NCBI RefSeq assembly: GCF_003334255.1 | Contig: NZ_QOWU01000010.1 | Strand: one strand, 5' to 3' | Origin: Escherichia coli | GTDB taxonomy: Bacteria > Pseudomonadota > Gammaproteobacteria > Enterobacterales > Enterobacteriaceae | DNA: 64,000 nt | In this document: positions 42,392-57,645 of the stretch, in pieces | Layout of the letters: the number at the start of each line of letters is the position of its first letter | Numbering within the stretch: position 1 is the first letter of the stretch | Made by a program: the position numbers and the translations under genes | The notes under the pieces: generated by a model | The model's database searches: none | Seen by the model: the letters and a program-made list of their open reading frames with translations, nothing else | What the model was told of the DNA's origin: nothing

Positions 42392-42415
42392 TTTTTCGTA
42401 AAGAGGGGGTAAAAC

Positions 42416-44388: not shown

Positions 44389-44477
44389 GAACAGATAACA
44401 CGCTGCGCCGTTTGTGTGTGTGATCCCAAACATAAGCACGGGGATGATAGCCGCTATCAGGCTGGTGGGCAATGCAA

Positions 44478-44651
44478 TCAGTCTGGTTCAGTTCGTTGCC
44501 ATACCTGCAATGAGCGCTTTTCCCTGTACTCTTTAAGGAATTGCTCAAGGGCAAAAGCACATGGCGCGAATCTTTCTGATTCATGCTCTATCTTTCTGCG
44601 CCGTCTTTTCCGTGCCGGTGATAATGTTTTGGTCAATTCTTTATCGGTCAT
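44478..44651 (-). CDS. hypothetical small basic protein (57 aa)
   Basis: MTDKELTKTLSPARKRRRRKIEHESERF...; ATG preceded by AGGA; downstream of orf101 on same strand, before the minus-strand terminator. Confidence 0.3.
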   Translation of the reverse strand: MTDKELTKTLSPARKRRRRKIEHESERFAPCAFALEQFLKEYREKRSLQVWQRTEPD

Positions 44652-44708
44652 TGTGTTGTCCTGCATAGCAATGCGCCGTAATACCTCACACCACGGCGCT
44701 GATAGTGA

Positions 44709-45014
44709 TTATTCTGATTCTTTGGCCTTGCGGCGCTGTAGTTCTTCACGAGCGATGGCGATAAGTTGCCCGAGTTCTTCCGTAGCTTTAATACCAATTT
44801 TTTCCACTTGCGCCAATGCATCGAGAGAAGAAATCAGAGGATTTTCACTGCTTCCTTCTGCCTGGCGGCGGGCGATCTCCCCGCGCATGGCGGTTACTAT
44901 GAATCCGGCGTTGCTTTCGCCGTCCAGTTTTACGGATTCCATGCCATCAAAAGCATCATGTGGGATACGAATTGAAATCTGTTTTGATTTGTCGTTGATA
45001 GTGTTTTTTGCCAT
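44709..45014 (-). CDS. hypothetical protein (101 aa), candidate island regulator
   Basis: MAKNTINDKSKQISIRIPHDAFDG...; ATG preceded by AGGAGA; reads away from paired operator-like inverted repeats. Confidence 0.55.
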   Translation of the reverse strand: MAKNTINDKSKQISIRIPHDAFDGMESVKLDGESNAGFIVTAMRGEIARRQAEGSSENPLISSLDALAQVEKIGIKATEELGQLIAIAREELQRRKAKESE

Positions 45015-45036
45015 GTGCATTCTCCTAAACAAAAGA

Positions 45037-45112
45037 TGTGATTCAGTATACACAAAAAAGAATCACAAAAAACACTTGACCTGTGATTCAGTTGAATTTA
45101 ATTTAAATCACA
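45037..45112. promoter_or_regulatory. divergent promoter region with two operator-like inverted repeats
   Basis: TGTGATTC-N15-GAATCACA (45037-45067) and TGTGATTC-N16-AATCACA (45082-45112); TTGACC -35-like hexamer at 45076-45081. Confidence 0.55.
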
Positions 45113-45201
45113 CCTCAGTAAGAGGATGTAAACGACAACGCCCCGAACTGTTTGCGGCAGTAGCGGGGCGTCTAACCAAACCGTTAACAGGAGTAACGAT
45201 T

Positions 45202-45399
45202 ATGGCTGGAACACAGCATACCCCACGTCTGGCGCACACACAAACTGCCTTTGTGTGGCGTTTTCTGGCACTAAGTGCCGGAGAATCTCAAATCATCCAC
45301 GTAACCGCCTGGACGGAACGCGAAGCGCGTAGCCGTTGCCCGTCCGGTTGTGTTGCTGTATTCGCCGCCCGTATTCGTCAGGGGGTGTGCCATGCCTGA
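45202..45399 (+). CDS. small protein (65 aa), possibly Icd/Ash-like
   Basis: MAGTQHTPRLAHTQTAFVWRFLALSAGESQ...; ATG after AGGAG (45189-45193); first gene rightward of the operator region; family assignment from memory only. Confidence 0.45.
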   Translation: MAGTQHTPRLAHTQTAFVWRFLALSAGESQIIHVTAWTEREARSRCPSGCVAVFAARIRQGVCHA

Positions 45400-45712
45400 C
45401 ATGACCAATTACCAGTACCTGATTAATCCGCATTTTAACTGTGAGCATGATATTGCTAAAAAGGTTTATTCCGCTGCGGATGGGGCTACTGACAATATAT
45501 CAATGGCTGTTTCGTCAATTGGTAGCCTGATGTGGTATGCGTCAGAAAATAAGGAATATGACGAAAAGGCCATGCGCATTGATATGGGTAATATTGGTTT
45601 GTTACTGGCAATGCTTGGACATTTTGATATTTCGTTACGGTGCACCATTGAAAATGCCACAGATGCATTAAATGCTATAAAGAAAGCGAATACTGATTCA
45701 AATCGGGGATAA
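45392..45712 (+). CDS. hypothetical protein (106 aa)
   Basis: MPDMTNYQYLINPHFNCEHDIAKKVYSAADG...; start overlaps previous stop; no family recognised. Confidence 0.5.
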   Translation: MPDMTNYQYLINPHFNCEHDIAKKVYSAADGATDNISMAVSSIGSLMWYASENKEYDEKAMRIDMGNIGLLLAMLGHFDISLRCTIENATDALNAIKKANTDSNRG

Positions 45713-45718
45713 ATAATC

Positions 45719-46018
45719 ATGAGAACGTATTTATCTGGCTTTACTGCCAGCGGTTATGCACACCCCAAAATTATCCCCGGCGCTATTTATCTGGATAAGA
45801 ACGGTAACAGAGTAACGGTAAAAGAACTGATGTTTGACCGTGTGTATTTTATTCGTGATGGCTATTCATTTCATAGTTCGCTGAACGTGGAGATCTTTAT
45901 TAGCAGATTCCGGCGGGAAATCCCGCTTTCCAGAAATAACCATGTGTCATGTATGGATGTTGATAAAAAACTACAGGAACTGAAAAACATGATTGCCGCG
46001 TGGAGAGAGCAGAAATGA
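45719..46018 (+). CDS. hypothetical protein (99 aa)
   Basis: MRTYLSGFTASGYAHPKIIPGAIYLDKNGNRVTVKELMFDRVYFIRDGYSF...; stop overlaps primase start (ATGA). Confidence 0.5.
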   Translation: MRTYLSGFTASGYAHPKIIPGAIYLDKNGNRVTVKELMFDRVYFIRDGYSFHSSLNVEIFISRFRREIPLSRNNHVSCMDVDKKLQELKNMIAAWREQK

Positions 46019-47832
46019 AAAAAGCGCCAAATTTAAAACACCAGCCGCGTGACAAAATGACGGAAGTCATCATTTTTGCGGGTAGTGATGCGTGGGCACA
46101 TGCGAAGCAGTGGCAGGAACAGGACGGGCGACTGGCTGGCGATAACGTGCCACCTGTCTGGCTTGGAGAGCAACAACTTGCCGAACTGGACAACCTGCAA
46201 ATCGTACCGGACGGACGCTATCGCGTGCGTCTCTACCAGGCGGGGTTATTGCGTCCGGGGCTTGTTAATACCATCGGGCAGAAACTGGCAGCGGCAGGTG
46301 TCAGGGATGCTGATTATTACCCTGAAGGAATGCACAGCCAGAAACGGGAGAACTGGCGCGAATATCTGGAACGTGAGCGGGGAGAGCTGGCGGAAAAGAA
46401 AAAGGTAGTTGAACTGCCTGTAAAGAAAAAAGAGCGGGTAAAAGACGATAACGCTTCATCACTGGCGCTTAACCAGATGGGAGCAAGTCAACGCGGCGAA
46501 GTTCTCCTGGCACATTATGGCGGTGAACTGGCGATTCATGCTGACTCTGACACTGTTCACTATTACAACGGCGTTGTATGGGAGCCAGTACAGGATAAAG
46601 AATTACAGCGAGCTATGGCGCAGATTTTCATTGATGCGGAGATCAGCTATTCGCAGAACGCCATTAAATCGGCGGTCGATACCATGAAGTTAAGTTTGCC
46701 TGTAATGGGGAATACAGCCCGTAACCTGATTGGATTCAGTAACGGTGTTTTTGATACCCGGACAGGCGATTTTCGGGAGCATAACAAAAACGACTGGTTG
46801 TTAATTGCCAGTGAATTACCTTTCAGCCCACCAGCAGAGGGGGAAACGCTGGCAACACATGCGCCGAATTTCTGGAAGTGGTTACGCCGTTCGGTGGCTG
46901 AGAATGACCGCAAGGCGGATCGCGTACTGGCTGCATTATTCATGGTGCTGGCGAACCGGTACGACTGGCAGTTATTCATTGAGGTAACAGGTCCAGGGGG
47001 AAGTGGTAAAAGCGTGATGGCGGAGATTTGCACCATGCTGGCGGGTAAGGCCAACACGGTATCGGCAAGCATGAAGGCGCTGGAAGATGCCAGGGAACGC
47101 GCGTTAGTGGTTGGCTTTTCGCTGATTATCATGCCGGATATGACCCGTTACGCTGGTGATGGCGCAGGAATTAAGGCCATTACAGGCGGTGACAAGGTGG
47201 CAATCGACCCGAAGCATAAAGCCCCCTACTCAACACGCATTCAGGCGGTAGTGTTGGCGGTGAACAATAACGCCATGTCATTCAGTGACCGCAGCGGGGG
47301 GATTTCACGTCGTCGGGTGATATTCAATTTTTCGGAGGTTGTACCGGAAAACGAACGCGACCCCATGCTGGCAGAAAAAATAGAAGGAGAGCTGGCGGTT
47401 GTGATTCGCCACCTGCTTACTCGTTTTTCTGACCAGGACGCAGCTAAACGCCTGCTGTATGAGCAGCAGAAATCAGAAGAAGCTCTGGTGATAAAACGCG
47501 AGGGCGATTCGCTGGTGGACTTCTGCGGCTATCTCATGTCGTCGGTAATGTGTGATGGTCTGTTAGTGGGTAATGCCGAAATTATTCCGTTCAGTCCGCG
47601 CAGGTATCTTTATCACGCCTATCTGGCATATATGAGGGCACACGGATTCGGTAAACCTGTAACACTGACGCGCTTCGGTAAAGATATGCCGGGGGCAATG
47701 GCGGAATATGGCAGGGAGTATATGAAACGGAAAACGAAGCACGGTTTGCGTTCAAACGTGACACTGACGGAGGAATCAGAAGACTGGATGCCATCATGTG
47801 TATCGGTCACTAATGACGATAGCAAAAATTAA
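46015..47832 (+). CDS. P4 alpha-like replication protein (primase/NTPase, P-loop)
   Basis: 605-aa ORF with Walker A GPGGSGKS and Walker B-like region; followed immediately by TGTTCACC iteron cluster. Confidence 0.8.
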   Translation: MKKAPNLKHQPRDKMTEVIIFAGSDAWAHAKQWQEQDGRLAGDNVPPVWLGEQQLAELDNLQIVPDGRYRVRLYQAGLLRPGLVNTIGQKLAAAGVRDADYYPEGMHSQKRENWREYLERERGELAEKKKVVELPVKKKERVKDDNASSLALNQMGASQRGEVLLAHYGGELAIHADSDTVHYYNGVVWEPVQDKELQRAMAQIFIDAEISYSQNAIKSAVDTMKLSLPVMGNTARNLIGFSNGVFDTRTGDFREHNKNDWLLIASELPFSPPAEGETLATHAPNFWKWLRRSVAENDRKADRVLAALFMVLANRYDWQLFIEVTGPGGSGKSVMAEICTMLAGKANTVSASMKALEDARERALVVGFSLIIMPDMTRYAGDGAGIKAITGGDKVAIDPKHKAPYSTRIQAVVLAVNNNAMSFSDRSGGISRRRVIFNFSEVVPENERDPMLAEKIEGELAVVIRHLLTRFSDQDAAKRLLYEQQKSEEALVIKREGDSLVDFCGYLMSSVMCDGLLVGNAEIIPFSPRRYLYHAYLAYMRAHGFGKPVTLTRFGKDMPGAMAEYGREYMKRKTKHGLRSNVTLTEESEDWMPSCVSVTNDDSKN

Positions 47833-47846
47833 ACTTATGGAATAAC

Positions 47847-48076
47847 TGTTCACCACTGTTCACCCTGTCATAAATATCTTTTGTATCAGTATGTTATAGG
47901 GTGAACAGTTATTTATGAACTGTTCACCAAACTATTCACTGTTCACCTTTTTGATTGTTTATTGAGCTTCAAGGGTGAACAGTGGTGAATAGTTGGTGAA
48001 TAGTTTTTGTGAAACTGTTCACCCCTTAACATTATGAATTAAAAGATAAAATATCAAAAGGTGAACAGGTGAAGGG
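47847..48076. repeat. iteron cluster (TGTTCACC / GGTGAACA), candidate origin of replication
   Basis: At least 8 exact 8-mers in both orientations (47847, 47857, 47899, 47921, 47940, 47974, 48016, 48060) plus degenerate GGTGAATA copies in an AT-rich 230-bp non-coding stretch. Confidence 0.8.
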
Positions 48077-48119
48077 TTAAAACGCAAAAATTTTAATTTA
48101 CTGCTGTGAGATAAAGCCT

Positions 48120-48365
48120 ATGACAGCGAAGCACACAAAAAAATCACAATCGCACGCCCTTGATTTGACGGAACACTGGTTAAGGGTGTCGATAAAAATC
48201 ATCGACCGCAACGCCGGGGAAGGATATGCGAAAGCACATCCCGAACTGATTAGCTCATTCATGACAACGGCAGCTGCAAACTTTGCCACGCTGACAGAAC
48301 GGGAGATTGCCGAAGCGGAACAGGTGACAACCATCAACGTTAAAACCGGAGAGCAGACAGCATGA
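48120..48365 (+). CDS. hypothetical protein (81 aa)
   Basis: MTAKHTKKSQSHALDLTEHWLRVSIKIIDRNAG...; stop overlaps start of the SSB-like gene. Confidence 0.45.
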   Translation: MTAKHTKKSQSHALDLTEHWLRVSIKIIDRNAGEGYAKAHPELISSFMTTAAANFATLTEREIAEAEQVTTINVKTGEQTA

Positions 48366-48772
48366 CAGCACAGATAGCAGCTTACGGGCGGCTGGTGGAC
48401 GACCCGCAGGTAAAACAGACCAGTAAGGGCACACCGATGACGCTGGCGCGTATGGCGGTATCGTTGCCATGTAGTCAGGCGCAGGATGGGCAGGCGACGT
48501 TATGGCTATCGGTCATCGCATTTGGTAAGCAGGCCGACTTCCTGGCTAAACATCAAAAAGGCGACGTTGCCAGCGTATCCGGCACGATGCAGGTCAGCCA
48601 GTGGACCGGACAGAACGGGGAAACGCGGCAGGGTTATCAGGTTATTGCAGACAGCGTAATCAGTGCCCGTGCGGCACGTCCTGGCGGGAACAGACGCAAA
48701 ACCACAGGCACACAGGGTAATCAGCCACCAGCGGGAGGCGATGACCCTTACGGTGACGGTATTCCGTTCTGA
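48362..48772 (+). CDS. single-stranded DNA-binding protein-like (OB fold with acidic C-terminal tip)
   Basis: 136-aa ORF with Gly/Gln-rich linker and C-terminal DDPYGDGIPF resembling the SSB DDDIPF tail. Confidence 0.7.
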   Translation: MTAQIAAYGRLVDDPQVKQTSKGTPMTLARMAVSLPCSQAQDGQATLWLSVIAFGKQADFLAKHQKGDVASVSGTMQVSQWTGQNGETRQGYQVIADSVISARAARPGGNRRKTTGTQGNQPPAGGDDPYGDGIPF

Positions 48773-48782
48773 GGGGGTGGCG

Positions 48783-49055
48783 ATGGTACATGACCGCATA
48801 GCGGAAGAACTCGAGGCGAAAGGCTTTTACCGGAGGGCGGCGGCGCGATGGGGTGAAGTCATGCTGCTGGTGGAGACAGACAAGGAACGGCATCAGGTTA
48901 CGATGCGACGGCTGGAATGTTCCAGGAAGGCACAGAAGCCACCGGAGCCGCCGGATAACTTCGGAGACCTGAGAAAGGCAGTAGATCGCACTTATGCTGA
49001 AATGGGTATAGATGGTGTAAGCGATGAAATATGGCGTAATTACCCAGACAGCTAA
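48783..49055 (+). CDS. PerC-family transcriptional regulator-like protein
   Basis: 90-aa ORF MVHDRIAEELEAKGFYRRAAARWGEVMLLVETDKERHQVTMRRLEC...; the AExLExKGxxRRAAxRWxEVM pattern is typical of PerC/Pch proteins; ATG after GAGGGGG. Confidence 0.55.
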   Translation: MVHDRIAEELEAKGFYRRAAARWGEVMLLVETDKERHQVTMRRLECSRKAQKPPEPPDNFGDLRKAVDRTYAEMGIDGVSDEIWRNYPDS

Positions 49056-49060
49056 TCAAC

Positions 49061-49084
49061 AGCCGGAGAAATCCGGCTTTTTTT
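49061..49084 (+). terminator. rho-independent terminator
   Basis: AGCCGGAG-aa-ATCCGGCT hairpin followed by T7. Confidence 0.65.
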
Positions 49085-49179
49085 GCACCAGTTGAAACGG
49101 TATGGCGCATTACCGGGTTTTCGTCACGGTCAGGCATAGTTACTATCTGAAACAAACAGACACAACAGAGGAAAAAACA

Positions 49180-49404
49180 ATGCCGATGAAATTTGATGAG
49201 ATATTAAAACAGCGTGATAAATACCATGCTGACAACATGGAGACGATGAGCATCAATGATTACCGCGCATTCCTGGAGACGGGCGCACTGATTGAAAAGG
49301 ATCAGCATGGTTTTGTGAGATGTGCTCTGTCCGGTGAAATGCTGGCGGTAAATCCTGAACAGATAGATGCATTGATAGAATTTCTGAAAGGGATCAGGGA
49401 CTGA
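49180..49404 (+). CDS. hypothetical protein (74 aa)
   Basis: MPMKFDEILKQRDKYHADNMETMSINDYRAFLETG...; ATG after AGGAAAAAA; followed by a terminator. Confidence 0.45.
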   Translation: MPMKFDEILKQRDKYHADNMETMSINDYRAFLETGALIEKDQHGFVRCALSGEMLAVNPEQIDALIEFLKGIRD

Positions 49405-49414
49405 GCACGCATAC

Positions 49415-49436
49415 AGCCGGAGCAATCCGGCTTTTT
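49415..49436 (+). terminator. rho-independent terminator (near-duplicate of 49061-49084)
   Basis: AGCCGGAG-caa-TCCGGCT hairpin followed by T5. Confidence 0.65.
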
Positions 49437-49696
49437 GTCATTTTTTGTAAATTATTTGTTCGTGGTTGTTCCACGTTGTTCACTGACAGGATCGGCATAT
49501 TTTACCCGAACTGAATCATGAGTATTCTCGCCCGTGGTGCCAGGACGCTGGGGCCACTTTCCCGCCTGTTAATGTGCTCGCCAATATTCATTACCAGGCG
49601 GGAAAACGATCGGTGCGATTGCTGATTTCCTTATGAAAAACGGTTGAGTTTTTGCCGCGTCCTGGAGTTCCTTACTTAACCCCAGGACTTTTTTTT

Positions 49697-50854
49697 ATGC
49701 CGAGAATAATCGAATTACGCCAGCAGAAAACCGCCATTAAAAATCAGATGCGCGACATGCTGGAGAACGCGGAAAAAGAAAACCGCAGCCTTAACGATGC
49801 AGAGGGCGCAAAATTTGACGAATTACGCGCTAAAGCTGAATCCCTCGATAAAGACATTTCCCGCCTTGAAGCCATTGCAGACGAAGAGCGCAGCAAGCCA
49901 GGTAAAAGCAGCCAGACCACTGACCCGGCAGAACTCCGCAACTACATCCTGACAGGTGAAACCCGCGCATTAAGTACAGGCGTTCCCGCTGATGGTGGTT
50001 ATACCGTTATCCCCGAACTGAACACCGAAATCATGCGAATGCTGACGGATGAATCCACCATGCGCCGCATCTGTACCGTGAAGAAAATCAGCAGCAACGA
50101 GTTTAAGCAGCTTGTTTCCGCTGGCGGTGCGACCGTTAACCACGGTGAAGAGGGTAAGACACGCGAACAGACCAGCACCCCGCAGATTAACGAGGTGAGC
50201 ATTAAGCTGTATCCGGTCTATGCGTACCCGCGCACCACACAGGAAATCGTGGATTTTTCCGATGTGGACATCCTTTCATGGCTGACGGGTGAGATTGGCG
50301 ACACCTTCACGGAAACCGAAGAAAGCGATCTGGTTGTGGGCGACGGTGACAAAAAAGCAAAAGGTTTTTTATCCGTACCCCGTGCAGAGAAGAACGACAA
50401 AGAGCGTGATTTTGGTACGTTGCAGGTAATTAAACCTTCCGAATCTCTGGCGTGGACATCTGCGGACCCGCTGATCGACCTGAAATTTGCATTACGTAAA
50501 AAATACCGCAAAAACGCGGTCTGGGTGGTTAACTCCACGACGGCGGCAAAACTTCAGAAGGTGAAGAACGCGAACGGTGATTACATCTGGCGCGACCGTT
50601 TACAGGCGGGTGATCCTGATACGTTGCTGGGCCTTCCGGTCGAATATCTGGAGTTTATGCCTGATAACGTTATTGCCCTGGGTGACTTCAAACGCGGTTA
50701 CTACATTGTTGATCACGAAACAGGTGTTCGCACCAGACCGGACAACCTCACAGAGCCGGGCTTCATCAAAATTTTCACGCAGAAATATTTAGGCGGTGGC
50801 GTGGTGGATTCGAACGCGATCAAGATTCTGGAACTGCCACAGGACGACGATTAA
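49697..50854 (+). CDS. major capsid protein, HK97 fold, with N-terminal coiled-coil (delta/scaffold-like) region
   Basis: 385 aa from ATG 49697 (MPRIIELRQQKTAIKNQMRDMLENAEKENRSLNDAEGAKFDELRAK...); capsid-family core follows. Confidence 0.85.
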   Translation: MPRIIELRQQKTAIKNQMRDMLENAEKENRSLNDAEGAKFDELRAKAESLDKDISRLEAIADEERSKPGKSSQTTDPAELRNYILTGETRALSTGVPADGGYTVIPELNTEIMRMLTDESTMRRICTVKKISSNEFKQLVSAGGATVNHGEEGKTREQTSTPQINEVSIKLYPVYAYPRTTQEIVDFSDVDILSWLTGEIGDTFTETEESDLVVGDGDKKAKGFLSVPRAEKNDKERDFGTLQVIKPSESLAWTSADPLIDLKFALRKKYRKNAVWVVNSTTAAKLQKVKNANGDYIWRDRLQAGDPDTLLGLPVEYLEFMPDNVIALGDFKRGYYIVDHETGVRTRPDNLTEPGFIKIFTQKYLGGGVVDSNAIKILELPQDDD

Positions 50855-50864
50855 CAGCATACAG

Positions 50865-50893
50865 AAGGGGCTTAAAAGCCCCTTTAGTGTTTT
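50865..50893 (+). terminator. stem-loop after capsid gene (attenuator/terminator)
   Basis: AAGGGGCTT-aaa-AGCCCCTT followed by TAGTGTTTT. Confidence 0.5.
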
Positions 50894-51466
50894 ATGGGTG
50901 AAAAAATTATGAAGAGTATGGAAATCCGGTCATCGGAAATCACCACCAGCGCCAGCAACACGCTTACAGGCTACGTTGTTCGCTGGGATAAGCTTTCAGA
51001 GCTGCTATGGGGGGAGTTTTACGAAAAATTCCAGCGGGGAGCGTTTACTGAATGGCTTGCGGCGGGTAATGACGTTCGCGGCCTGTATGAGCATGACCAC
51101 AGCATGTTGCTGGGGCGTACCCGTTCCGGCACGCTGAAACTGGAAGAGGACGAAACAGGGTTACGCTTTGAACTGACCCCACCGGATACCAGTACAGGGC
51201 GCGACGTTATCGAACTGGTTAAGCGTGGGGACATCTCGGGGATGAGCTTTGGCTTTCGCTCCCGTAAGGATGTATGGGATACCACAACAGATCCATGCGT
51301 GCGCACCGTGCTGGTGGCGGAACTGTACGAAATTACCGTTACATCGGTACCGGCTTACCCCGATTCCGGCGTGGAGCTGGCCCGCCGTTCCCTGTATGAG
51401 CAGCACCCCGAAAAAATGCCGCGTGCGGATAATCGCCGCTGGTGGGTGGATTTAGCGGGGGTGTGA
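50894..51466 (+). CDS. prohead maturation protease, HK97 family
   Basis: 190-aa ORF (true start may be ATG 50909); GAFTEWLAAGNDVRGLYEHDHSMLLGRTRSGTLKLEEDETGLRFELTPPDTSTGRD...GDISGMSFGF matches HK97-type prohead protease. Confidence 0.8.
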   Translation: MGEKIMKSMEIRSSEITTSASNTLTGYVVRWDKLSELLWGEFYEKFQRGAFTEWLAAGNDVRGLYEHDHSMLLGRTRSGTLKLEEDETGLRFELTPPDTSTGRDVIELVKRGDISGMSFGFRSRKDVWDTTTDPCVRTVLVAELYEITVTSVPAYPDSGVELARRSLYEQHPEKMPRADNRRWWVDLAGV

Positions 51467-51467
51467 T

Positions 51468-52679
51468 ATGTGGCTTTTCAGAAGAAAAAAAGAGCAGCGC
51501 AGCATGACGCTTGATGAATTTATGGCGCTGGCTGGCACATCGAACACGGGGGCGGGTGAGTACGTATCATCGGGGACAGCGGAATCACTGCCCGCCGTCA
51601 TGAACGCCGTGACGGTCATCTCTGAGGCGGTGGCTACCATGCCGTGTTACCTGTACCTGGTACGCAATGAGAAGGGGAAGGAGGCCCGCGAGTGGCTTGA
51701 TTCTCATCCGGTCGATCACATCCTCAACGAGCGCCCGAACGCGTGGCAGACTCCCTACCAGTTTAAGCGAATGATGATCCGCCACTGCCTGTTAAACGGT
51801 AATGCTTATGCGGTGATTCAGTGGGGGCGTGATGGTTTTCCGGTGGCTTTACATCCTTACCCGCCGCAGTCGGTGAACGTGGAGCAGACAGGCGAACACA
51901 ACTGGCGCTACTGCATCACTGACGCCTACACCGGAAACACCCGCAACTATTTACCGTGGGAGGTTCTCCACCTTCGTTACTCCACGGATGACGGTTTTAT
52001 GGGGCGCTCACCTGTAACCATCTGCCGCGAATCGCTGGGGCTTGGGCTGGCCCAACAACGCCACGGCGCGAGCGTGATGCGTGATGGCATGATGGCGGCA
52101 GGGGTTATCACGTCAGGCGAATGGCTGGACGGCGTGAAGGGCAAACAGGCATTAGCCGCACTGGAACGCTACAAAGGGGCCAGAAACGCCGGAAAAACGC
52201 CCATCCTTGAAGGGGGTATGAGCTATCAGCAGCTGGGCATGAGTAATCAGGATGCTGAATGGCTGGCCTCCCGTCGCTTCACCATTGAAGACATCGCCCG
52301 AATGTTCAACGTCTCGCCGATTTTTCTGCAGGAATACAGCAACAGCACCTACAGCAATTTCAGCGAGGCAAGCCGCGCATTTCTCACCATGACAATGCGC
52401 CCGTGGCTGGCGAACTTTGAGCAGCAGATAAAAAACGCCCTGCTGGTGGCCTCGCCTGTACCTGGTATCCGGTATCAGGTGGAGTTTGACAGCGCGGACC
52501 TGTTACGGGCCACACCTGGCGAACGCTTTGCCACCTATGAACGCGGCATCAAATCCGGCGTTATGTGCCCGAACGAAGCCCGCGAACGTGAAGGGCTGTC
52601 CCCGCGTGATGGTGGTGATGAGTTCAGCCAGGCATGGAAACAGGAAGTAAAAATCAGCGAGGGAGAAAAACCGGAATGA
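51468..52679 (+). CDS. portal protein, HK97 family
   Basis: 403-aa ORF; N-terminal region ...MPCYLYLVRNEKGKEAREWLDSHPVDHILNERPNAWQTPYQFKRMMIRHCLLNGNAYAV typical of HK97-like portals. Confidence 0.8.
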   Translation: MWLFRRKKEQRSMTLDEFMALAGTSNTGAGEYVSSGTAESLPAVMNAVTVISEAVATMPCYLYLVRNEKGKEAREWLDSHPVDHILNERPNAWQTPYQFKRMMIRHCLLNGNAYAVIQWGRDGFPVALHPYPPQSVNVEQTGEHNWRYCITDAYTGNTRNYLPWEVLHLRYSTDDGFMGRSPVTICRESLGLGLAQQRHGASVMRDGMMAAGVITSGEWLDGVKGKQALAALERYKGARNAGKTPILEGGMSYQQLGMSNQDAEWLASRRFTIEDIARMFNVSPIFLQEYSNSTYSNFSEASRAFLTMTMRPWLANFEQQIKNALLVASPVPGIRYQVEFDSADLLRATPGERFATYERGIKSGVMCPNEAREREGLSPRDGGDEFSQAWKQEVKISEGEKPE

Positions 52680-53014
52680 ACATAGGGCGACTGCGTGACA
52701 GGGTAACGATTCAGACCCTGAAACAGACCAGGGATATAACCGGCGAAATACTCGAAACGTGGGAGGACGGTCACACACTCTGGGCAAGCGTGAACATGAT
52801 CAGCAGCAAGGAGGCCATTTCATCGGGTGCAGAGCTGGCGATTGGTACCGTAAGGATCTGGATACGGTACCGGAAGGACATCAATGCCACCAGCCGGATA
52901 AAGGTCAGTACGGGGCCGCTGGCGGGGCGTGTACTGAATATCATCGGGCAGCCGCTGCCGGATGCCGCCAGGACACGCCTTGAAATTCTTTGTCGTGAGG
53001 GCGCGGAAAAATGA
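52676..53014 (+). CDS. head-tail adaptor / head closure protein
   Basis: 112 aa from ATG 52676 overlapping portal stop (MNIGRLRDRVTIQTLKQTRD...). Confidence 0.65.
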   Translation: MNIGRLRDRVTIQTLKQTRDITGEILETWEDGHTLWASVNMISSKEAISSGAELAIGTVRIWIRYRKDINATSRIKVSTGPLAGRVLNIIGQPLPDAARTRLEILCREGAEK

Positions 53015-53307
53015 CAGAAGAACTTATCACCCTGGAAGAAGTGAAACTCCATTGCCGCATCGATGGCGACGAGGAAGACCAGTTAATCAGCGGATACATC
53101 GCCGCATCGCTTGAGGCGTGCCAGATACACATAGGCAGGCGCTTTGATGACGGGCTGGAGTTCACGCCAGCCATAAAGATTGGCTGCATGATGTTTATCG
53201 CTCACCTGTATGAAAATCGCCAGATTGTCGCGGATAACGCAAAAACACGCGTACCCATGACGATTGGTGCACTCTGGACGGCTTACCGTGATGTGGGGGT
53301 GTACTGA
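53011..53307 (+). CDS. gp6-like head-tail connector protein
   Basis: 98-aa ORF MTEELITLEEVKLHCRIDGDEEDQLISGYIAASLEACQIHIGRRF... Confidence 0.65.
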   Translation: MTEELITLEEVKLHCRIDGDEEDQLISGYIAASLEACQIHIGRRFDDGLEFTPAIKIGCMMFIAHLYENRQIVADNAKTRVPMTIGALWTAYRDVGVY

Positions 53308-53747
53308 TGCCGTGGCAACCATTAAGACGATGCACAGAACCAGGCTGTAACAGGCGCGTGAAGTCCGGCAAGTGTGAGGAGCACAGGCGGGCGGCATGGC
53401 GTGCAGAGGATGCCAGACGAGGACACCGCCGCGCGCGTGGGTACTCCAGACAGTGGGACAAATACCGCGCCATGTATCTGAGTAAAAACCCGTTATGCGT
53501 GCGATGCCTTGAGAAGGGGATATATACGCCCGCCGTGGTGGTGGATCACATTATCCCGATTAATGGCGGTGATGATGTTCTCTTCTGGCCCGAATGGAAC
53601 CATCAGCCATTGTGCCAGGCGTGCCATAACCAGAAAACGAAATGGCTTGATCCGGCAACAAAAAGCAAGCGTGCCGCAGGTGGATTTCGTGAAGAGGAAG
53701 AACGGGCCGCTAACCGCAATAACTGGATGTATGACGCTGATGAATGA
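53307..53747 (+). CDS. HNH endonuclease (packaging-associated)
   Basis: 146-aa ORF with Cys pairs (CTEPGCNRRVKSGKCEEH, CVRC) and HNH core VVDHIIPINGG...NHQPLCQACHNQKT. Confidence 0.85.
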   Translation: MPWQPLRRCTEPGCNRRVKSGKCEEHRRAAWRAEDARRGHRRARGYSRQWDKYRAMYLSKNPLCVRCLEKGIYTPAVVVDHIIPINGGDDVLFWPEWNHQPLCQACHNQKTKWLDPATKSKRAAGGFREEEERAANRNNWMYDADE

Positions 53748-53913
53748 GCGGGAACAAAACCGCCTTATCCGTGGACTTATAAGGCAGCGTGACGCATGGA
53801 AGACACAGGAAACAGGGCATAAAGATAAAGCGTCAGGACGCGCAGAACGCATCACAGCGAAGCGATTAACCGACCGTGACCGCGAGGTTATGGAATGTTT
53901 CCGCAATCGCTGA
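53740..53913 (+). CDS. possible small charged protein (57 aa), translationally coupled to HNH gene
   Basis: ATG overlaps HNH stop; MNEREQNRLIRGLIRQRDAWKTQETGHKDKASGRAERITAKRLTDRDREVMECFRNR; no RBS evidence. Confidence 0.25.
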   Translation: MNEREQNRLIRGLIRQRDAWKTQETGHKDKASGRAERITAKRLTDRDREVMECFRNR

Positions 53914-54035
53914 TGAGGCTGTATGACGGGGTGGGGGGCGTTTTCAGGACAAACCCGACCCCGCCGGGCACCGACCGCCTCCTCAAATTTTTATGCACGG
54001 GAATTTTTTGAAAAATAATCTGACGAAAAATAAGC
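53914..54035. other. candidate cos/packaging-initiation region between HNH and terS
   Basis: Non-coding stretch with G/C-rich blocks (ACGGGGTGGGGGGCG, CCCGACCCCGCCGGGCACCGACCGCC) directly upstream of terS; HNH-cos-TerS arrangement is typical of HK97-like cos packaging. Confidence 0.3.
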
Positions 54036-54392
54036 ATGGCAAGACCACCGAAAGCCCCCGCCTACCTGGATGACATCGCCGTGAAGCAGTGGCGGGAAAA
54101 ATCGCGGCAGCTTGCGGAACGGGGAGACCTGACCCCCGCCGACTGGAGCAATCTGGAACTGTATTGTGTCAACTACTCCATTTACCGGAAAGCCGTCGCA
54201 GACCTTGCGGCGCGCGGGTTCAGCATTGTTAACAGTCAGGGCGGCGAGAGCAGAAACCCCGCATTAAGCGCGAAATCAGACGCTGAAAGGGTGATGATAA
54301 AAATGGCCTCCTTGCTCGGTTTTGACCCGATAAGCCGCCGTAAAAACCCACCGGAAACAGAAGAAGAGGACGAGCTTGACCGCCTGGAATAA
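54036..54392 (+). CDS. terminase small subunit (P27-like)
   Basis: 118-aa ORF MARPPKAPAYLDDIAVKQWREKSRQLAERGDLTPADWSNLELYCVNYSIYRKA...; overlaps terL start. Confidence 0.7.
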   Translation: MARPPKAPAYLDDIAVKQWREKSRQLAERGDLTPADWSNLELYCVNYSIYRKAVADLAARGFSIVNSQGGESRNPALSAKSDAERVMIKMASLLGFDPISRRKNPPETEEEDELDRLE

Positions 54393-56037
54393 GTACGCAG
54401 AAGACGTAAAAACGGGCAAAATTCAGGCCTGTAAACGGTTAAAACAGGCCGTTAAACGGTACTTTTCGGACCTTAAAAGCCCCCTTTACACGTTCGATCG
54501 TGAGGTTGTGGATCGGTTTATTGCCTTTTCCAGGGTGTGCCCGCACGTAAAAGGGCCGATGCGTGGCAGACCCATTGAGCTGGAGCCGTGGCAGCAGTTC
54601 GCCTTTGCGTGCATCCTCGGCTTTAAGGTTAAGGCCACCGGACGGCGCAAATATACGAGCGCCTTTATCGAAGTGCCGCGCAAAAATGCTAAATCAACGA
54701 CCGCCGCGATTCTGGCTAACTGGTTTCTGATTATGGAGAACGGTCAGCAGGATATTTACACCGCAGCGGTGAGCCGTGACCAGGCGAGGATCGTATTTGA
54801 TGATGCGCGTCAGATGTGCATTTTATCCCGACCGTTACGCAGGCGGGTGAATATTCAGGCGCATAAGGTGATACACCCGAAAACCAACAGCCTGTTAAAG
54901 CCGCTGGCAGCAAAAGCGGCAACTATCGAGGGCACAAACCCCAGTCTTTCTATCGTGGACGAATACCACCTACACCCCGACAACGGCGTATATTCTGCGC
55001 TTGAACTGGGGATGGGGGCACGTCCCGAAGGGCTGTTATTTGCCATTACCACATCGGGAAGTAACGTCGTTTCAGCCTGTAAGCAGCATTATGATTATTG
55101 CTGCCAGATCCTGGACGGCGAAGAGGTTAACGAATCGCTTTTTGTGCTGATTTACGAACTGGACGACGAAAACGAGGTTGATGATCCGGAGATGTGGATA
55201 AAGGCGAACCCTAATATCGATGTTTCCGTGGATCGTGAAAAACTGGCCTCAACCATTCAGAAAGCGCGGGGTATTCCGTCGCAATGGGTGGAGATGATGA
55301 CAAAGCGATTTAATATCTGGTGTCAGGGGACTACCCCGTGGATGGGTAATGGTGCATGGGCTGAGTGTGCCGGAACGTTCACGGAGGAAGATTTACACGG
55401 TCAGGAGTGTTACGCGGGGCTGGACTTATCATCAACCAGCGATATTTCCAGCGTGTGCTATGCCTTTCCGGTCGGTAAAACCATTATGATGATTTCCCGT
55501 CATTATCTGCCGGAGTTCCAGCTACAGAACCCCGCCAATAAAAACCGCGCTGTCTATCGTCAGTGGGCTAAAGCAGGCTGGATACGCACAACGCCTGGCG
55601 ACTGCATTGATTACGACCGGATCAGAGATGACATCATGCAGGACGCGGAGAAATTTAATATCAGGCTGGTGGGCTTTGATACGTGGAACGCCACGCATCT
55701 CAGAACGCAATTACAGGGGGCAGGTTTTGAGGTGGAGCCGTTCCCGCAAACCTACCTCAGATTCAGTCCGGCGGCGAAATCGTTCGAAGTTTTTGTTAAC
55801 CGCAGGGTGATTGTGCATCGTGGCGATCCGGTGTTGTCCTGGTCGATGAGTAACGTCGTGATGCAGAGTGACGCGAACGCCAATATCAAGCCGAACAAGA
55901 AAAAATCACCGAACAAGATAGACCCGAGCGTGGCGGCGCTGATGGCGTTTGGTACATTCCAGGCAGAGCATGAGGATTTTGCTTTTGATATAAGCGACAG
56001 CCACCGCCAGAAACTGGAAGAATTTAGCGGGGTGTAA
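54376..56037 (+). CDS. terminase large subunit
   Basis: 553-aa ORF with ATPase P-loop region (VPRKNAKSTTAA) and C-terminal nuclease-type domain. Confidence 0.85.
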   Translation: MTAWNKYAEDVKTGKIQACKRLKQAVKRYFSDLKSPLYTFDREVVDRFIAFSRVCPHVKGPMRGRPIELEPWQQFAFACILGFKVKATGRRKYTSAFIEVPRKNAKSTTAAILANWFLIMENGQQDIYTAAVSRDQARIVFDDARQMCILSRPLRRRVNIQAHKVIHPKTNSLLKPLAAKAATIEGTNPSLSIVDEYHLHPDNGVYSALELGMGARPEGLLFAITTSGSNVVSACKQHYDYCCQILDGEEVNESLFVLIYELDDENEVDDPEMWIKANPNIDVSVDREKLASTIQKARGIPSQWVEMMTKRFNIWCQGTTPWMGNGAWAECAGTFTEEDLHGQECYAGLDLSSTSDISSVCYAFPVGKTIMMISRHYLPEFQLQNPANKNRAVYRQWAKAGWIRTTPGDCIDYDRIRDDIMQDAEKFNIRLVGFDTWNATHLRTQLQGAGFEVEPFPQTYLRFSPAAKSFEVFVNRRVIVHRGDPVLSWSMSNVVMQSDANANIKPNKKKSPNKIDPSVAALMAFGTFQAEHEDFAFDISDSHRQKLEEFSGV

Positions 56038-56050
56038 TGAGGTCAGCAGC

Positions 56051-56332
56051 ATGACAGAAGCCGAAATAACGGGATTAATCCGCCGCGTTGCCGGAATCAG
56101 CCAGCAGGCTGACGAACAGGCCACGCAGCCGGACAGCGTGACAGCCGAAAACTATGCGCGTGTTGTTGCTGAGGTGATGCGCCGTGATGGTATAGAACTT
56201 AATGGCGTGGATATGCGCAACATACGAACCAGAGTTCTTGAGTTGCTGGCCTACCGTCGCCGCGTGGAGATGTATCGGGAGAAGGAGAAAATAACGTACC
56301 ACTGGAAGAAGCCGGAGCGGTTGCGGCGGTAA
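56051..56332 (+). CDS. hypothetical protein (93 aa)
   Basis: MTEAEITGLIRRVAGISQQADEQATQPDSVTAENYARVVAEVMRRDGIEL...; ATG after GAGGT, 14 bp downstream of terL stop. Confidence 0.5.
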   Translation: MTEAEITGLIRRVAGISQQADEQATQPDSVTAENYARVVAEVMRRDGIELNGVDMRNIRTRVLELLAYRRRVEMYREKEKITYHWKKPERLRR

Positions 56333-56419
56333 CTGGTTGATATTCCCGACGGACCAAAAATGGGTGGCTACATCCCTCGCTTCTGAGGACTGTTAACAAG
56401 CTGCCTGAAAGACAGTCAC

Positions 56420-56890
56420 AAACTACGAAATTTTCGCAGTTTAATTAATGATCAGCTTAATCGCTAACCCGCTGATATTTTCGGAAACCTCAATTTGAGG
56501 AAGTCGGCGCGGTAACTCGCTGAACTTTAAGCAAAGTGCAAAATTGCGCTTGCTGAATAATCATTATGATTACGCAGATGATTAAGGAATGACCGAAGGC
56601 GGAAATTCGCCTGTGGTTAATGGGGGAGTTGCAGATCTGCAACTCGACCATGAAACTACGGAAACTACCCGTAGTTTGGGTAGTAAGAGTAACACCCAGA
56701 TTTTGGGTCTTACTCGTGATACCCAAATTTGGGGTATCAGTGGCAACCATAACGACTTTCGTTACGGTTGATGCTTTTACCCCATTGGGGGAAAGGTATT
56801 ACGATAATCATAACACCTACCGAACAGGTAAAGCCCACCAGCCTGATTAACGTTTAACCGGAAAAAAATTCCGGTAGGTGGGGATCCCCA
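56420..56890. other. palindrome-dense non-coding region at island right end
   Basis: Ten dyad-symmetric elements including perfect 20-bp palindrome GAGTTGCAGATCTGCAACTC (56626-56645) and three TACCC..GGGTA-type dyads about 25 bp apart; overlapping small ORFs lack RBS. Confidence 0.6.
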
Positions 56891-57000
56891 TATCGACATT
56901 AACGCCCCTCATGAATTGGTGCGCTTCCCCCTGGAAAGATGATCCGCCTGTATATTTCTTGTGTCTATTTGTTCCACGTTGTTTCATACAGTGCACCGAA

Positions 57001-57024
57001 CGGTGTAGTCACTGGTGTAGTCAT
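57001..57024. promoter_or_regulatory. tandem GGTGTAGTCA repeat near right end (candidate integrase arm-type site)
   Basis: CGGTGTAGTCACTGGTGTAGTCAT, counterpart of 42368-42391. Confidence 0.4.
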
Positions 57025-57097
57025 TTTGCGATTTTTGGCACTTTTTGCGGTGAAAATTATTTAATTAAATCAACGTGTTATGTGAAATAAGTTATAT

Positions 57098-57106
57098 ATA
57101 ACAGCA
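57098..57106. repeat. right copy of 9-bp direct repeat (att core)
   Basis: ATAACAGCA, identical to 42232-42240. Confidence 0.7.
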
Positions 57107-57234
57107 ATAAATAATGCGAGAATAAACGGCACGATGATCTCGGCGGCAAAACGGATACCGCAGAGAATAATGACCAGCATTCCCAACATAATGACGATTT
57201 TTAGGCCATTGAGCGTGATGATCGGCTTTGCCAT
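57098..57234 (-). pseudogene. tqsA: tqsA 5' fragment (codons 1-46) separated from the rest of the gene
   Basis: Minus-strand ATG at 57234 encodes [46 protein letters not shown] then runs into island DNA (YNLFHITR, stop). Confidence 0.85.
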
Positions 57235-57645
57235 GCTTGTCCCCGTTTTTTCTTCCTTTGCTAATAATAATGTCTTTTTCGCTCCGTCATCATAACGAAA
57301 ATCAAACCGCTCAGGTAAAGAAGTGAAAATATTTTGAGTTAATTCTTAAGCTATGATACAAATCAGGCGTGTTCAACTACCGAGGACAATTATCATCCGC
57401 GATGACGAGAAGCAACACTGCGGATAATTGTAATATTATGGACAATTTGTTCAGGACGTTATTTTCTACATTTACCCATCTTCGTACCTCATCCACTATC
57501 TTGCTCGTAGGTGAGCAGCACTGGCGCAACGCGCTTTAGTCCTTTCTTCTGCCAAAGCTTGCGCTATGCGCGGGGCTTGACCACTTTACTTTGGTTTCGC
57601 TGAATTAAGCGAAAATTAAAATAATTCTCTTGCAGGAGAAGGACA

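Follow-up and report, generated by a model that had tools for sequence, protein, structure and literature searches.

A modular, palindrome-dense right arm in capsid-forming phage satellites of Escherichia coli and its possible role at the 3′ end of the island operon

The stretch of Escherichia coli DNA analyzed here (the window, 64,000 nucleotides) harbors a capsid-forming phage satellite (cf-PICI) of the EcCIEDL933 type, inserted in tqsA. Positions 56340–56900 constitute its non-coding right arm, between the last island gene, a 93-aa ORF (56051–56332, + strand), and attR. The junction of attR with a tqsA fragment lies at ~57090, in agreement with the first-pass annotation, which had assigned the region to the right end of an island. 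The real att arm starts outside the palindromic region with the integrase arm-type direct repeats CGGTGTAGTCACTGGTGTAGTCA (57001–57023, + strand), of which an identical 23-mer is present at 42368–42390, just upstream of int, and a perfect IHF consensus, AATCAACGTGTTA (57068–57080, + strand), adjoins the attR junction. The island replication origin occupies 47832–48120 and contains five TGTTCACC and three GGTGAACA iterons plus variants, arranged around an AT-rich center; its placement 3′ of pri-rep agrees with the published description (PMC6092414). The cos site of the island is probably located at 53914–54035, between the small ORF after HNH and terS, as judged from the Klebsiella cf-PICI record LR881103, a sequence recovered from induced particles that opens 22 bp ahead of terS and closes beyond the HNH-linked ORF. 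Host transcription at the right end is convergent, the tqsA fragment, the tRNA-Ile gene, and an abi gene all lying on the − strand. Genes of accessory or defense type adjoin the right arm, for example abi in the island at locus L004.

The 93-aa protein belongs to PHROG 1561, a family with no known function; it is arginine-rich and has a basic C-terminus. It matches no Pfam family and no PDB sequence, its AlphaFold model is all-helical with a pLDDT of 68, and all Foldseek matches of this model to PDB folds have E > 0.8; a recognizable DNA-binding fold was not found by these routes. Its relatives fall into only 36 clusters at 50% identity, mostly fragments that are 64–99% identical to the query. 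A 2175-aa apparent relative (P0139) looks like a eukaryotic mucin-like repeat protein, and hence the match appears spurious. A mutant in the “hypothetical gene 1792” of EcCIEDL933 transfers poorly; this gene may or may not correspond to the 93-aa ORF.

Every dyad that the first-pass annotation had listed is present where it had been placed, and the density, which had been called unexpected for random DNA, is far above the shuffle expectation. The interval 56340–56900 harbors 12 perfect inverted repeats (arms ≥6 bp, loops ≤12) versus 1.66 ± 1.30 in dinucleotide shuffles, none of 500 reaching 12, and with arms of at least 7 bp the count is 8 versus 0.38. No other part of the 64-kb window is as dense in palindromes: perfect inverted repeats of ≥7 bp reach 7 per 300 bp here, a value attained by 0 of 500 shuffles, whereas the mean over the window is 0.37; the six top-ranking 300-bp intervals all fall inside 56401–56950. 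Folded as RNA, 56585–56790 is much more stable than shuffles on both strands (z = −9.2 for + and −11.0 for −). The region is possibly a structured RNA.

The left half of the region consists of three tandem 45–50-bp repeats, designated M-units, which the first-pass annotation had overlooked. Each is composed of an IHF-consensus head and a hairpin, and all heads have the same orientation. M-unit 1 (a-type, 56326–56375, + strand) begins with the head CGGCGGTAACTGGTTGATA, which overlaps the stop codon of the 93-aa gene and is followed by the weak hairpin ACC-AAAAAT-GGGT; this head is a perfect IHF consensus (56330–56342, − strand) and is conserved across all island types. M-unit 2 (b-type, 56459–56507, + strand), found in more than 20 loci, has the head TAACCCGCTGATA (56465–56477) and a two-tier hairpin, TTTTCGG..TCGG around CCTCAATTTGAGG (56488–56500). 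M-unit 3 (a-type, 56506–56577, + strand) has the head TAACTCGCTGAAC (56513–56525) and the hairpin AGCAAAGTGCAAAATTGCGCTTGCT (56530–56554), followed by the dyad CTGAATAATCAT/ATGATTACGCAG (56553–56577). The AAACTAC motif at 56420 is part of a 23-bp palindrome, AAACTACGAAATTTTCGCAGTTT (56420–56442), which has one mismatch in the window and is perfect in the O157 island L091.

Among 68 distinct M-units, at least 10 different inner stems follow the conserved head, including the compensated variants GCGC/GCGC, GCTC/GAGC, GTGC/GCAC, ACGC/GCGT, and GCCC/GGGT. The heads also echo the last codons of the gene (GCGGCGGTAAC versus GCGCGGTAAC). The IHF consensus WATCAANNNNTTR with an adjacent A/T tract occurs at 5 sites window-wide versus 3.1 expected, such that a single site is not significant; the argument for candidate IHF sites therefore lies in their recurrence in many M-unit heads, with up to four perfect copies in L084.

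To the right of the M-units lies a discrete 123-bp core (56621–56743) of four hairpins, H1–H4. H1 (56620–56651) is the perfect 20-bp palindrome GAGTTGCAGATCTGCAACTC (56626–56645) extended by an outer stem, ATGG/CCAT, in which 21 sequences have G-C and 3 have A-T at one pair (alignment columns 8–35); the central positions of H1 are kept symmetric (CAGATCTG, CAGATTTG, CAAATTTG). H2 (56653–56677) is AAACTACGG-N7-CCGTAGTTT in the window, where it carries a 9-bp tandem duplication, GAAACTACG, and has the basic form AAACTAC-NN-GTAGTTT elsewhere; 99.5% of its alignment cells are paired around a variable spacer (CC, AG, CT, CA). H3 (56678–56724) is a long imperfect dyad, GGGTA..GAGTAA..ACCCA / TGGGT..TTACTC..TACCC, and is the least supported helix, with 84% of cells paired, 0 compensatory pairs, and loss of the inner dyad in L004. 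H4 (56717–56739), TGATACCC-N7-GGGTATCA, has a highly variable loop and two compensated pairs: columns 103–125 are C-G in 23 sequences, T-A in 4, and T-G in 2, and columns 107–121 are A-T in 25, C-G in 1, and A-G in 4. Three ACCC-N7-GGGT dyads start at 56667, 56694, and 56721, spaced by exactly 27 bp; this phased triple is not kept in homologues, as L002 has an imperfect site 2 and L004 has lost both site 1 and site 2.

Overall, 94.3% of core cells are paired, compared with 29–39% when the partners are slid, and three pairs changed on both sides account for 8 cells versus 2.5 ± 1.3 in shuffles (0 of 500). The first-pass annotation had named lack of conservation of the dyads across homologous islands among its grounds for refutation; those of the core are conserved, with compensatory changes, and the pairing of the hairpin modules is kept by compensatory mutations. 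Nucleotide identity of the core is 81–99% versus 76–89% for the adjacent coding gene, and the core is higher in 10 of 10 pairwise comparisons, including the most divergent one, between the window and L004 (81% versus 77%). Within the core, conservation is similar in stem and non-stem columns (entropy 0.14 and 0.20, respectively; P = 0.44). By a manual tally of the pair table, ~10 wobble-compatible changes keep G-U on the + strand and ~6 on the − strand, and the + strand gives the better fold in just 16 of the 32 arms (P = 0.64), such that a strand preference is absent.

Further hairpin modules flank the core. A GC-rich hairpin, ACCGAAGGCGG-AAAT-TCGCCTGTGGT (56592–56617, + strand), lies upstream of it in the window. 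In the common L002-type arrangement, a homologous GC module is placed after the core, where it is scored as an intrinsic terminator, with 11 pairs (9151–9176 in L002) followed by the tail TACTTATTGT; thus, the core would sit there within a transcribed 3′ UTR. A module at 56730–56784, AACCATAACG-N5-CGTTACGGTT (56745–56769) with the outer arms TGGGGTA../..TACCCCA, is separate from the core and also occurs in core-less islands. The last elements (56857–56890) are an ACCGG-A7TT-CCGGT dyad (56857–56875) and the TGGGGATCCCCA box (56879–56890), a conserved dyad resembling CCGATA-N12-TATCGG that is present in islands with other att sites.

A Chi site that had escaped the first-pass annotation is found on the − strand at 56835–56842 (CCACCAGC on the + strand), within the conserved module GCCCACCAGCCTGATTAAC. 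Of 35 distinct right arms, 29 have at least one Chi oriented in this way no more than 800 bp from the gene, and Chi sites in both orientations are concentrated in this part of the island. As a separate observation, Chi is 4–8 times commoner in these satellites than in the surrounding chromosome (0.7–1.3 per kb versus ~0.1 per kb in flanking DNA). This excess suggests a possible protection of linear concatemers from RecBCD in a Gam-less element, and it could outweigh the hairpins in importance.

Of 5426 complete E. coli genomes, 721 (13%) carry the core. It is preceded in 84 of 85 loci by a homologue of the 93-aa gene (60–100% identity), located 74–552 bp upstream. Core-bearing islands represent four satellite types that differ in integrase and in packaging system, with integration at tqsA, tRNA-Ile, thiM, or a prophage-capsid site, and the distance from the core to att is variable. 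The core is missing from 27 of the 43 islands (63%) with a close homologue of the 93-aa gene; elsewhere it is truncated (L008, L043b) or duplicated 434–443 bp apart, and in L043-type islands a second iteron cluster lies between the two cores. The first-pass annotation had not noticed that the core is modular and optional. Module order varies among islands, and change occurs by replacement of whole segments instead of insertion, as where 238 bp of the window correspond to 52 bp in L091. The right arm is thus a mosaic of short hairpin modules exchanged between satellites. Core-less right arms remain rich in palindromes (2.8 per 500 bp; 0.39 for shuffled sequence, 0.26 for coding DNA), and palindrome enrichment is a general feature of all such right arms. 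The arm occurs in both prototype island types, EcCIEDL933-like and EcCICFT073-like, and arms of this kind are carried by ~1400 E. coli genomes. A DNA-pattern scan of 100,044 species-representative genomes gave no match to the core motif, and a protein-pattern scan of species-representative genomes was likewise empty; therefore, the covariation set contains no cross-genus members. A metagenome scan contributed few additional variants.

The first-pass annotation had seen no ORF in the region and recognized no known element, and both statements stand. In homologues, the reading frames across the core are interrupted, by stop codons in L004 and by a 1-nt indel in L005 and L088, which disposes of the 52-aa “hypothetical protein” that PGAP calls over the core in some genomes. 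Variable core columns number 10, 17, and 16 by codon position, with no 3-base periodicity, and the frame of a small hydrophobic peptide (MKLRKLPVVWVV...) is not conserved. No curated family matches the region: a search of 55900–57400 against Rfam 15, covering both strands, yields nothing at E ≤ 1, ARAGORN finds 0 tRNA or tmRNA genes, and a phage database searched in distant mode leaves the region unmatched. A plasmid database returned only 6 “plasmid” records, all from E. coli and typed as non-mobilizable, with no oriT or par homology; by their size, several look like a chromosome or an excised island. Intrinsic terminator and sigma-70 promoter scans remain at shuffle level, the former with two weak sites in the window and hairpins lacking a proper U-tract. 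A sigma-54 reading of GGCTGGTGGGTGAGTTGCA was rejected, as its GG/GC spacing fits L002 and is lost in the window and in L005; the sRNAs Esr41 and Pas are encoded elsewhere. The sequences of the region are not printed in any paper found, and the papers examined on cf-PICIs and Rpp-type PICIs describe the ori, the cos sites, and an int-attP test construct, leaving the 0.4–0.8-kb non-coding arm unmentioned.

Several known systems share part of this architecture. REP elements are credited with stabilization of mRNA 3′ ends and with architectural roles. Like REP/BIME elements of E. coli, in particular the IHF-binding BIME-1 (RIP/RIB) type, the region is an extragenic array of imperfect palindromes with IHF consensus sequences, located just after a stop codon, variable in copy number, and able to fold on either strand. 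However, it bears no similarity to the REP consensus, its units are in direct rather than alternating orientation with stems that differ from unit to unit, and it is confined to PICI satellites rather than dispersed over the chromosome. Clusters of intrinsic or bidirectional terminators at the ends of phage and island operons provide a second comparison. In the Klebsiella cf-PICI vB_KppS-Ant, ordinary T-tailed terminators come immediately after the homologous last gene, with the Int arm repeats behind them, so that a terminator is expected at the position of the region, and the L002-type GC hairpin scores as one. In contrast, the window hairpins lack U-tracts, are far more numerous than termination needs, and include several loop-less perfect palindromes.

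The F plasmid centromere sopC repeats a 43-bp unit 12 times in tandem; every unit contains a 7-bp inverted repeat, and these inverted repeats are identical and bound by one protein. The M-units are of similar length and also contain an inverted repeat each, but here the inverted repeats differ between units, only the head is conserved, and the annotated islands have no partition genes. The centromere-like function raised by the first-pass annotation is therefore reduced to a formal resemblance. Integron attC sites are also imperfect palindromes 3′ of genes in which structure is kept while sequence varies, and the b-type heads contain GCCTAAC, which fits the attC inverse core RYYYAAC; unlike attC, the units have no GTTRRRY partner at their other end, no cassettes separate them, and there is no integron integrase. 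Lambda sib and nut and HK022 put resemble the region in combining a conserved linear head with a hairpin and in placing hairpins across att from int, where an effect could depend on the integrated or circular state. The geometry is reversed, however, the hairpins of the region lying upstream of int in the circle; moreover, the loops do not resemble boxB, the head (YGYTGATA) differs from boxA CGCTCTTA, and a strand bias is absent.

On the basis of these features, the region may be a structured 3′-end insulator for the rightward operon of the island, the most likely of the readings considered but one held with low confidence; both this role and selection on the hairpins at the transcript level are what we infer. 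The hairpin modules would give the island a highly structured 3′ end that buffers or terminates transcription leaving the operon and stabilizes the 3′ end of its transcript. Transcription arriving from the convergent host promoter would be affected as well, because the hairpins fold on either strand. The conserved heads and local Chi sites may provide homology and recombination activity, which would explain the gain, loss, duplication, and re-ordering of modules, including the 123-bp core. This proposal is consistent with the fixed position and polarity of the array relative to the 93-aa gene, with the retention of structure rather than sequence in M-unit stems and core pairing, and with a core that is more conserved than the neighboring gene and followed in L002 by a terminator-like hairpin. 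The terminator position in Klebsiella, the convergent host transcription, and the palindrome-rich core-less arms point the same way, and the unrelated half-sites of the core fit hairpins better than a single operator protein. On the other side, the window hairpins have no proper U-tract, strand asymmetry is lacking, module order differs between islands, and non-stem columns of the core are conserved like stem columns. In addition, palindromes that are perfect through the center, and an H1 center kept symmetric by paired change, point to duplex DNA, as an RNA loop needs neither.

These last observations count in favor of a nucleoprotein array acting at the DNA level, an unlikely alternative in which the unit heads would be occupied by IHF and the palindromes by one or several dimeric proteins, with the 93-aa protein as the obvious candidate. 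Bent in this way, the complex would influence in cis some step of the satellite cycle, for example excision control, late replication, or condensation of DNA for the small capsid. The perfect IHF consensus over the stop codon and its recurrence in M-unit heads, the missing strand bias, conservation of the core beyond its stems, and the tight linkage to one small gene whose product has a basic C-terminus are in its favor, as is the L043 iteron cluster between two cores, for which the P4 ori/crr arrangement is the comparison. Such an array would require several different proteins, since the four core dyads share no half-site, and no dyad recurs elsewhere in the island, at a promoter or otherwise, apart from one TACCC-N7-GGGTA inside terL; the multi-operator array suggested in the first-pass annotation is not supported, for the same reasons. 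Moreover, absence of the core from most islands with a close homologue of the 93-aa protein, which itself has no recognizable DNA-binding fold, indicates that the core is not an essential partner of that protein, and the distance to att is variable. Published minimal constructs also function alone, although those clones may or may not contain the core: pri-ori replicates and cloned cos1 is transduced (PMC6092414, PMC6739421).

It is also unlikely, although conceivable, that the units are scars at a cassette-exchange hotspot, that is, fossil 3′ ends of the last gene with their hairpins, left behind when accessory ends were swapped. The core would then be a functionless hitch-hiking module whose high identity reflects recent exchange and not purifying selection. 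Heads that echo the last codons of the gene, replacement of whole segments as in L091, an optional and sometimes truncated or duplicated core, accessory or defense-type neighbors such as abi, and Chi sites concentrated in both orientations are what such a history would leave. The compensatory substitutions in the H1 outer stem, H4, and the M-unit stems, however, show selection for pairing, the core exceeds the gene in conservation even between the most divergent islands, and palindrome enrichment extends to all these arms.

A more speculative proposal, which we consider quite improbable, is that E. coli PICIs possess a dedicated cis-acting system, made up of the M-units and the core, which is active only in the excised circle or concatemer. 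In one version, a directional array of conserved heads and hairpins, possibly read by the 93-aa protein encoded just upstream, may let RNA polymerase continue from the end of the late operon over attP and back into int-alpA by nut/put-like processive antitermination, yielding self-sustaining transcription round the circle. In another version, the array may be a programmed Chi-plus-palindrome hotspot that drives the exchange of accessory cassettes between satellites.

Packaging, replication, and attachment sites of the island appear to lie elsewhere. An exact lambda cosN lies on the same strand 0.8–1.5 kb upstream of the core, beside rpp, in 25 core-bearing loci; Rpp-type islands with this core have it 1.0–1.5 kb upstream. 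In the region itself, the best match to lambda cosN GGGCGGCGACCT has 3 mismatches, which is chance level (the cos1 sequence used is from the supplement of PMC6739421). For an HK97-type cos, the expected HNH–terS interval of the cf-PICI is 2.4 kb upstream of the region, and in every satellite type cos is upstream of the core. The TGTTCACC/GGTGAACA iterons of a PICI/P4-type origin are confined to 47832–48120, with 0 in 56340–56900, and the Int arm repeats and the att-proximal IHF site fall outside, at 57001–57080. The core has no fixed distance from att across its four integration sites. The packaging and accessory att sites offered by the first-pass annotation are thus not borne out: a cos/pac, replication-origin, or integrase-arm site, which the proximity to terS/terL and att and the IHF sites typical of cosB, ori, and attP might have suggested, is largely refuted, given also that the same core accompanies four unrelated packaging modules and that the element is optional.

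cf-PICIs and Rpp-type PICIs have been intensively studied, yet this arm goes unmentioned in the papers examined. If true, the dedicated system would, in either version, define a new class of regulatory DNA or RNA specific to satellites. The 123-bp core provides a defined target for addressing how the operon of these islands ends, how it is insulated from host transcription, and how accessory cargo is exchanged.

The interval 56340-56900 was described by the first-pass annotation as a non-coding stretch with more dyads than chance would allow, and all of the dyads that it listed were recovered in place. Twelve perfect inverted repeats (arms ≥6 bp, loops ≤12) are present, compared with 1.66 ± 1.30 in dinucleotide shuffles (12 reached in 0/500), so the density is indeed non-random; with arms of at least 7 bp, the values are 8 and 0.38. 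In a sliding 300-bp scan of the 64 kb, the top six windows all fall in the region and hold 5-7 repeats each (mean, 0.37). The RNA fold of 56585-56790 has z = -9.2 (+ strand) and -11.0 (- strand).

The tqsA insertion is a ~15-kb satellite, according to the PCN033-type locus annotation and the ORF map. Its gene order is int, alpA-like HTH, icd-like, DUF4222, P4-type primase, SSB, PerC, major capsid, prohead protease, portal, connectors, HNH, P27-family TerS, TerL (54376-56037), and a 93-aa ORF (56051-56332). The gene content is that of a capsid-forming PICI (cf-PICI), as in EcCIEDL933 (bioRxiv 10.1101/2022.09.08.507074). Between the 93-aa ORF and attR lies ~760 bp of non-coding DNA harboring the region, which places it at the right end of the island, as proposed. 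Positions 56300-56950 are 100% identical to E. coli PCN033 and many O157, O26, O103, and O55 genomes.

Query positions 322-444 (56621-56743) act as a discrete module in a megablast search of 5426 complete E. coli genomes. This 123-bp core is found in 721 of them at 75%-100% identity and comprises hairpin H1 (the 20-bp palindrome plus the outer stem ATGG/CCAT), hairpin H2 (AAACTAC-NN-GTAGTTT, with a 9-bp tandem duplication in the window copy), the long imperfect dyad H3, and hairpin H4 (GATACCC-N7-GGGTATC). The TACCC-N7-GGGTA motif that forms core sites 1 and 3 has a further exact copy, TACCCCGTGGATGGGTA, 1.3 kb upstream inside terL (55332-55348); ~0.06 are expected by chance in 64 kb.

The core terminates four kinds of satellite, always in the same orientation: cf-PICIs at tqsA and thiM (loci L001, L005); islands at tRNA-Ile and thiM that combine a ClpP-capsid fusion with a DUF1441 TerS-like protein (L002, L003); helper-embedded satellites within a lambdoid capsid gene (L004); and Rpp/lambda-cos islands of the EcCICFT073 type. 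In 84/85 loci, a 93-aa gene homologue lies 74-552 bp upstream of the core. Conversely, among the 43 IMG/VR loci with a close 93-aa homologue and at least 600 bp downstream, 27 do not have the core; therefore, it is an accessory module and not an essential cis site. The core-less right arms (the non-coding DNA from the last gene to attR) carry 2.8 palindromes per 500 bp, versus 0.39 and 0.26 in shuffles and coding DNA, respectively, and the arms with a core carry 7.0.

The core is truncated in L008 and L043b. In L007, L009, L040, and L043, it is duplicated, the copies lying 434-443 bp apart and flanking a second, ori-like iteron cluster in the right arm. This lineage uses a different iteron, GCGGGTTA/TAACCCGC (L043 2051-2166, 9710-9854), and its second cluster between two cores recalls the ori/crr pair of P4.

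Pairing in the core appears to be under selection. Across 30 distinct sequences, 94.3% of core cells are paired, versus 29-39% when the partners are slid. The check for covariation across related islands found three pairs in which both partners had changed (alignment A3, columns 8-35, 103-125, and 107-121), amounting to 8 double-changed cells against 2.5 ± 1.3 in shuffles (8 reached in 0/500). H3 is poorly supported, with 84% of cells paired and zero compensated pairs. In 10/10 comparisons, conservation is higher in the core than in the coding gene next to it. The dyads of the core are conserved in homologous islands.

The left half, 56326-56577, consists of tandem 45-50-bp M-units, which were defined by comparing the window with 43 further right arms. 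The window units start at 56326, 56459, and 56506, the first head overlapping the 93-aa stop codon. The conserved heads are of two kinds, a-type GCGGTAACNNNYTGAKA and b-type GCCTAACCCGYTGATW, each leading into a two-tier hairpin with an inner stem that varies between units. At least 10 inner stems occur, including CCTCA, GCGCA, GCTCA, GTGCA, TTCGCC, CAGCC, CCCCC, and CCACAG; this variety amounts to compensatory variation among paralogous units. Islands carry 1-7 units, and the two types tend to alternate (window, L211, L084, L187, and others). Other modules also recur: the AAACTACGAAATTTTCG(C/T)AGTTT palindrome, a Chi-containing box, the GGGGATCC box, a GC hairpin, and the AACCATAACG hairpin. 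They vary in order among islands, with entire segments replaced.

Hairpins are favored over operators by three features: the dyads have no common half-site, stem sequences differ while pairing is retained, and the H4 loop and H2 spacer are free to vary. The first of these also counts against the suggested multi-operator array. The region may be a structured RNA, as proposed, since pairing is kept by compensated changes, but four features speak against a strand-specific one. Wobble-compatible single changes tallied from the core pair table total ~10 for the + strand and 6 for the - strand, the + strand gives the better fold in just 16/32 arms, several dyads are perfectly palindromic right through the center, and non-stem core columns are as well conserved as stem columns. 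A role at transcript ends is favored by the fixed position and polarity of the region, a terminator-like GC hairpin just 3′ of the L002-type core, ordinary terminators at the homologous place in a Klebsiella cf-PICI, and host transcription converging on the island right end. The leading reading, held tentatively, is that the region may form a structured 3′-end or bidirectional insulator array.

A protein-DNA array phased by IHF is a weaker possibility; both M-unit head types match the IHF consensus YAANNNNTTGATW. Recombination scars or a cassette hotspot are a slightly less probable origin. A dedicated antitermination or recombination system is improbable.

That the region is itself a cos, ori, or att site is very improbable at best. 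The origin of E. coli PICIs lies directly 3′ of pri-rep (PMC6092414). That interval here, 47832-48120, holds five TGTTCACC and three GGTGAACA iterons (at least 8 exact copies in all) plus variants (TATTCACC), in two inverted sets flanking an AT-rich center. The TGTTCACC octamer is also the P4 type I iteron, which is consistent with the P4-alpha-like primase. The origin reading was rejected, with zero iterons within 56340-56900.

The suggested packaging site is likewise disfavored: no cosN-like sequence was found in the region, and an exact lambda cosN lies 0.8-1.5 kb upstream on the same strand in 25 core-bearing loci. The published cos1 cosB is present in two of the 25, as is the start of EcCICFT073 rppA; plasmid-cloned cos1 is sufficient for transduction (PMC6739421). 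By analogy with HK97, the cf-PICI cos is likely to lie at 53914-54035, between the HNH-linked small ORF and terS, an interval for which the literature searched apparently holds no mapped cf-PICI cos. This interval is GC-rich (GGGGTGGGGGGCG ... CCCGACCCCGCCGGGCACCGACCGCC, then an A/T-rich run). The deposited record of a Klebsiella cf-PICI from induced particles begins 22 bp before terS.

The 23-mer CGGTGTAGTCACTGGTGTAGTCA has one copy at 57001 and another immediately ahead of int at 42368, and a perfect IHF consensus (57068-57080) adjoins the att junction; therefore, the att arm starts beyond the region, and the proposal that the region holds accessory att sites is not supported. A second repeat common to both arms, TTGTTCCAGCTTGTTTCACGTTG (left, within 42300-42416) and TTTGTTCCACGTTGTTTCATACAG (right, within 56960-57000), adjoins GGTGTAGTCA arm-type repeats and may bind a further recombination protein, perhaps AlpA. 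Searches of the region for Rfam, tRNA, and tmRNA matches returned zero. PGAP annotates an ORF over the core in some genomes, yet the frames are interrupted in homologues and codon periodicity is absent, in agreement with the initial view that no ORF is present.

The island is also strongly enriched in Chi (GCTGGTGG): it has 14 sites in 14.85 kb (42246-57100), whereas the rest of the window (49 kb) has 6 (Poisson P ~1e-8). Sites at 43300, 44461, 47511, 48391, 48866, 51310, 51438, 52442, and 55665 are on the + strand and those at 46828, 48725, 50943, 52887, and 56835 on the - strand. The excess is 4-8-fold both in five annotated E. coli islands and across 549 kb of IMG/VR satellite DNA, which has 0.87 per kb (loci L001-L005 and L006-L083); other E. 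coli PICIs have 0.69-1.26 per kb versus 0-0.12 in their flanks. Orientation flips in the non-coding right arms, where - sites reach 1.40 per kb versus 0.03 in packaging genes. The excess possibly shields linear concatemers from RecBCD in a satellite with no recognizable Gam. The literature searched holds no connection between Chi and PICIs.

Diversity is low. The core and the 93-aa family occur almost exclusively in Escherichia, with zero matches in 100,044 species-representative genomes; the family forms only 36 protein clusters (50% identity), and metagenomes contributed few new variants. In the Klebsiella cf-PICI vB_KppS-Ant (L090 4598-4786), the last small ORF encodes 62 aa ending ...YQWRKPERPR, a shortened homologue of the 93-aa protein (...YHWKKPERLRR), and is followed by ordinary terminators in place of the palindrome array. 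The family therefore reaches Klebsiella cf-PICIs. Many IMG/VR provirus contigs (L161, L163-L165, L167, and ~30 others) end exactly 3 bp past the 93-aa gene, which we take to mean that provirus boundary calls are cut back to the last gene. Such catalogues would then systematically lack the non-coding right arm, attR included. No specific mechanism can be established in silico, and the readings are ranked here by their probability; the region itself is a genuine feature of E. coli PICIs, structure-selected and not described before.
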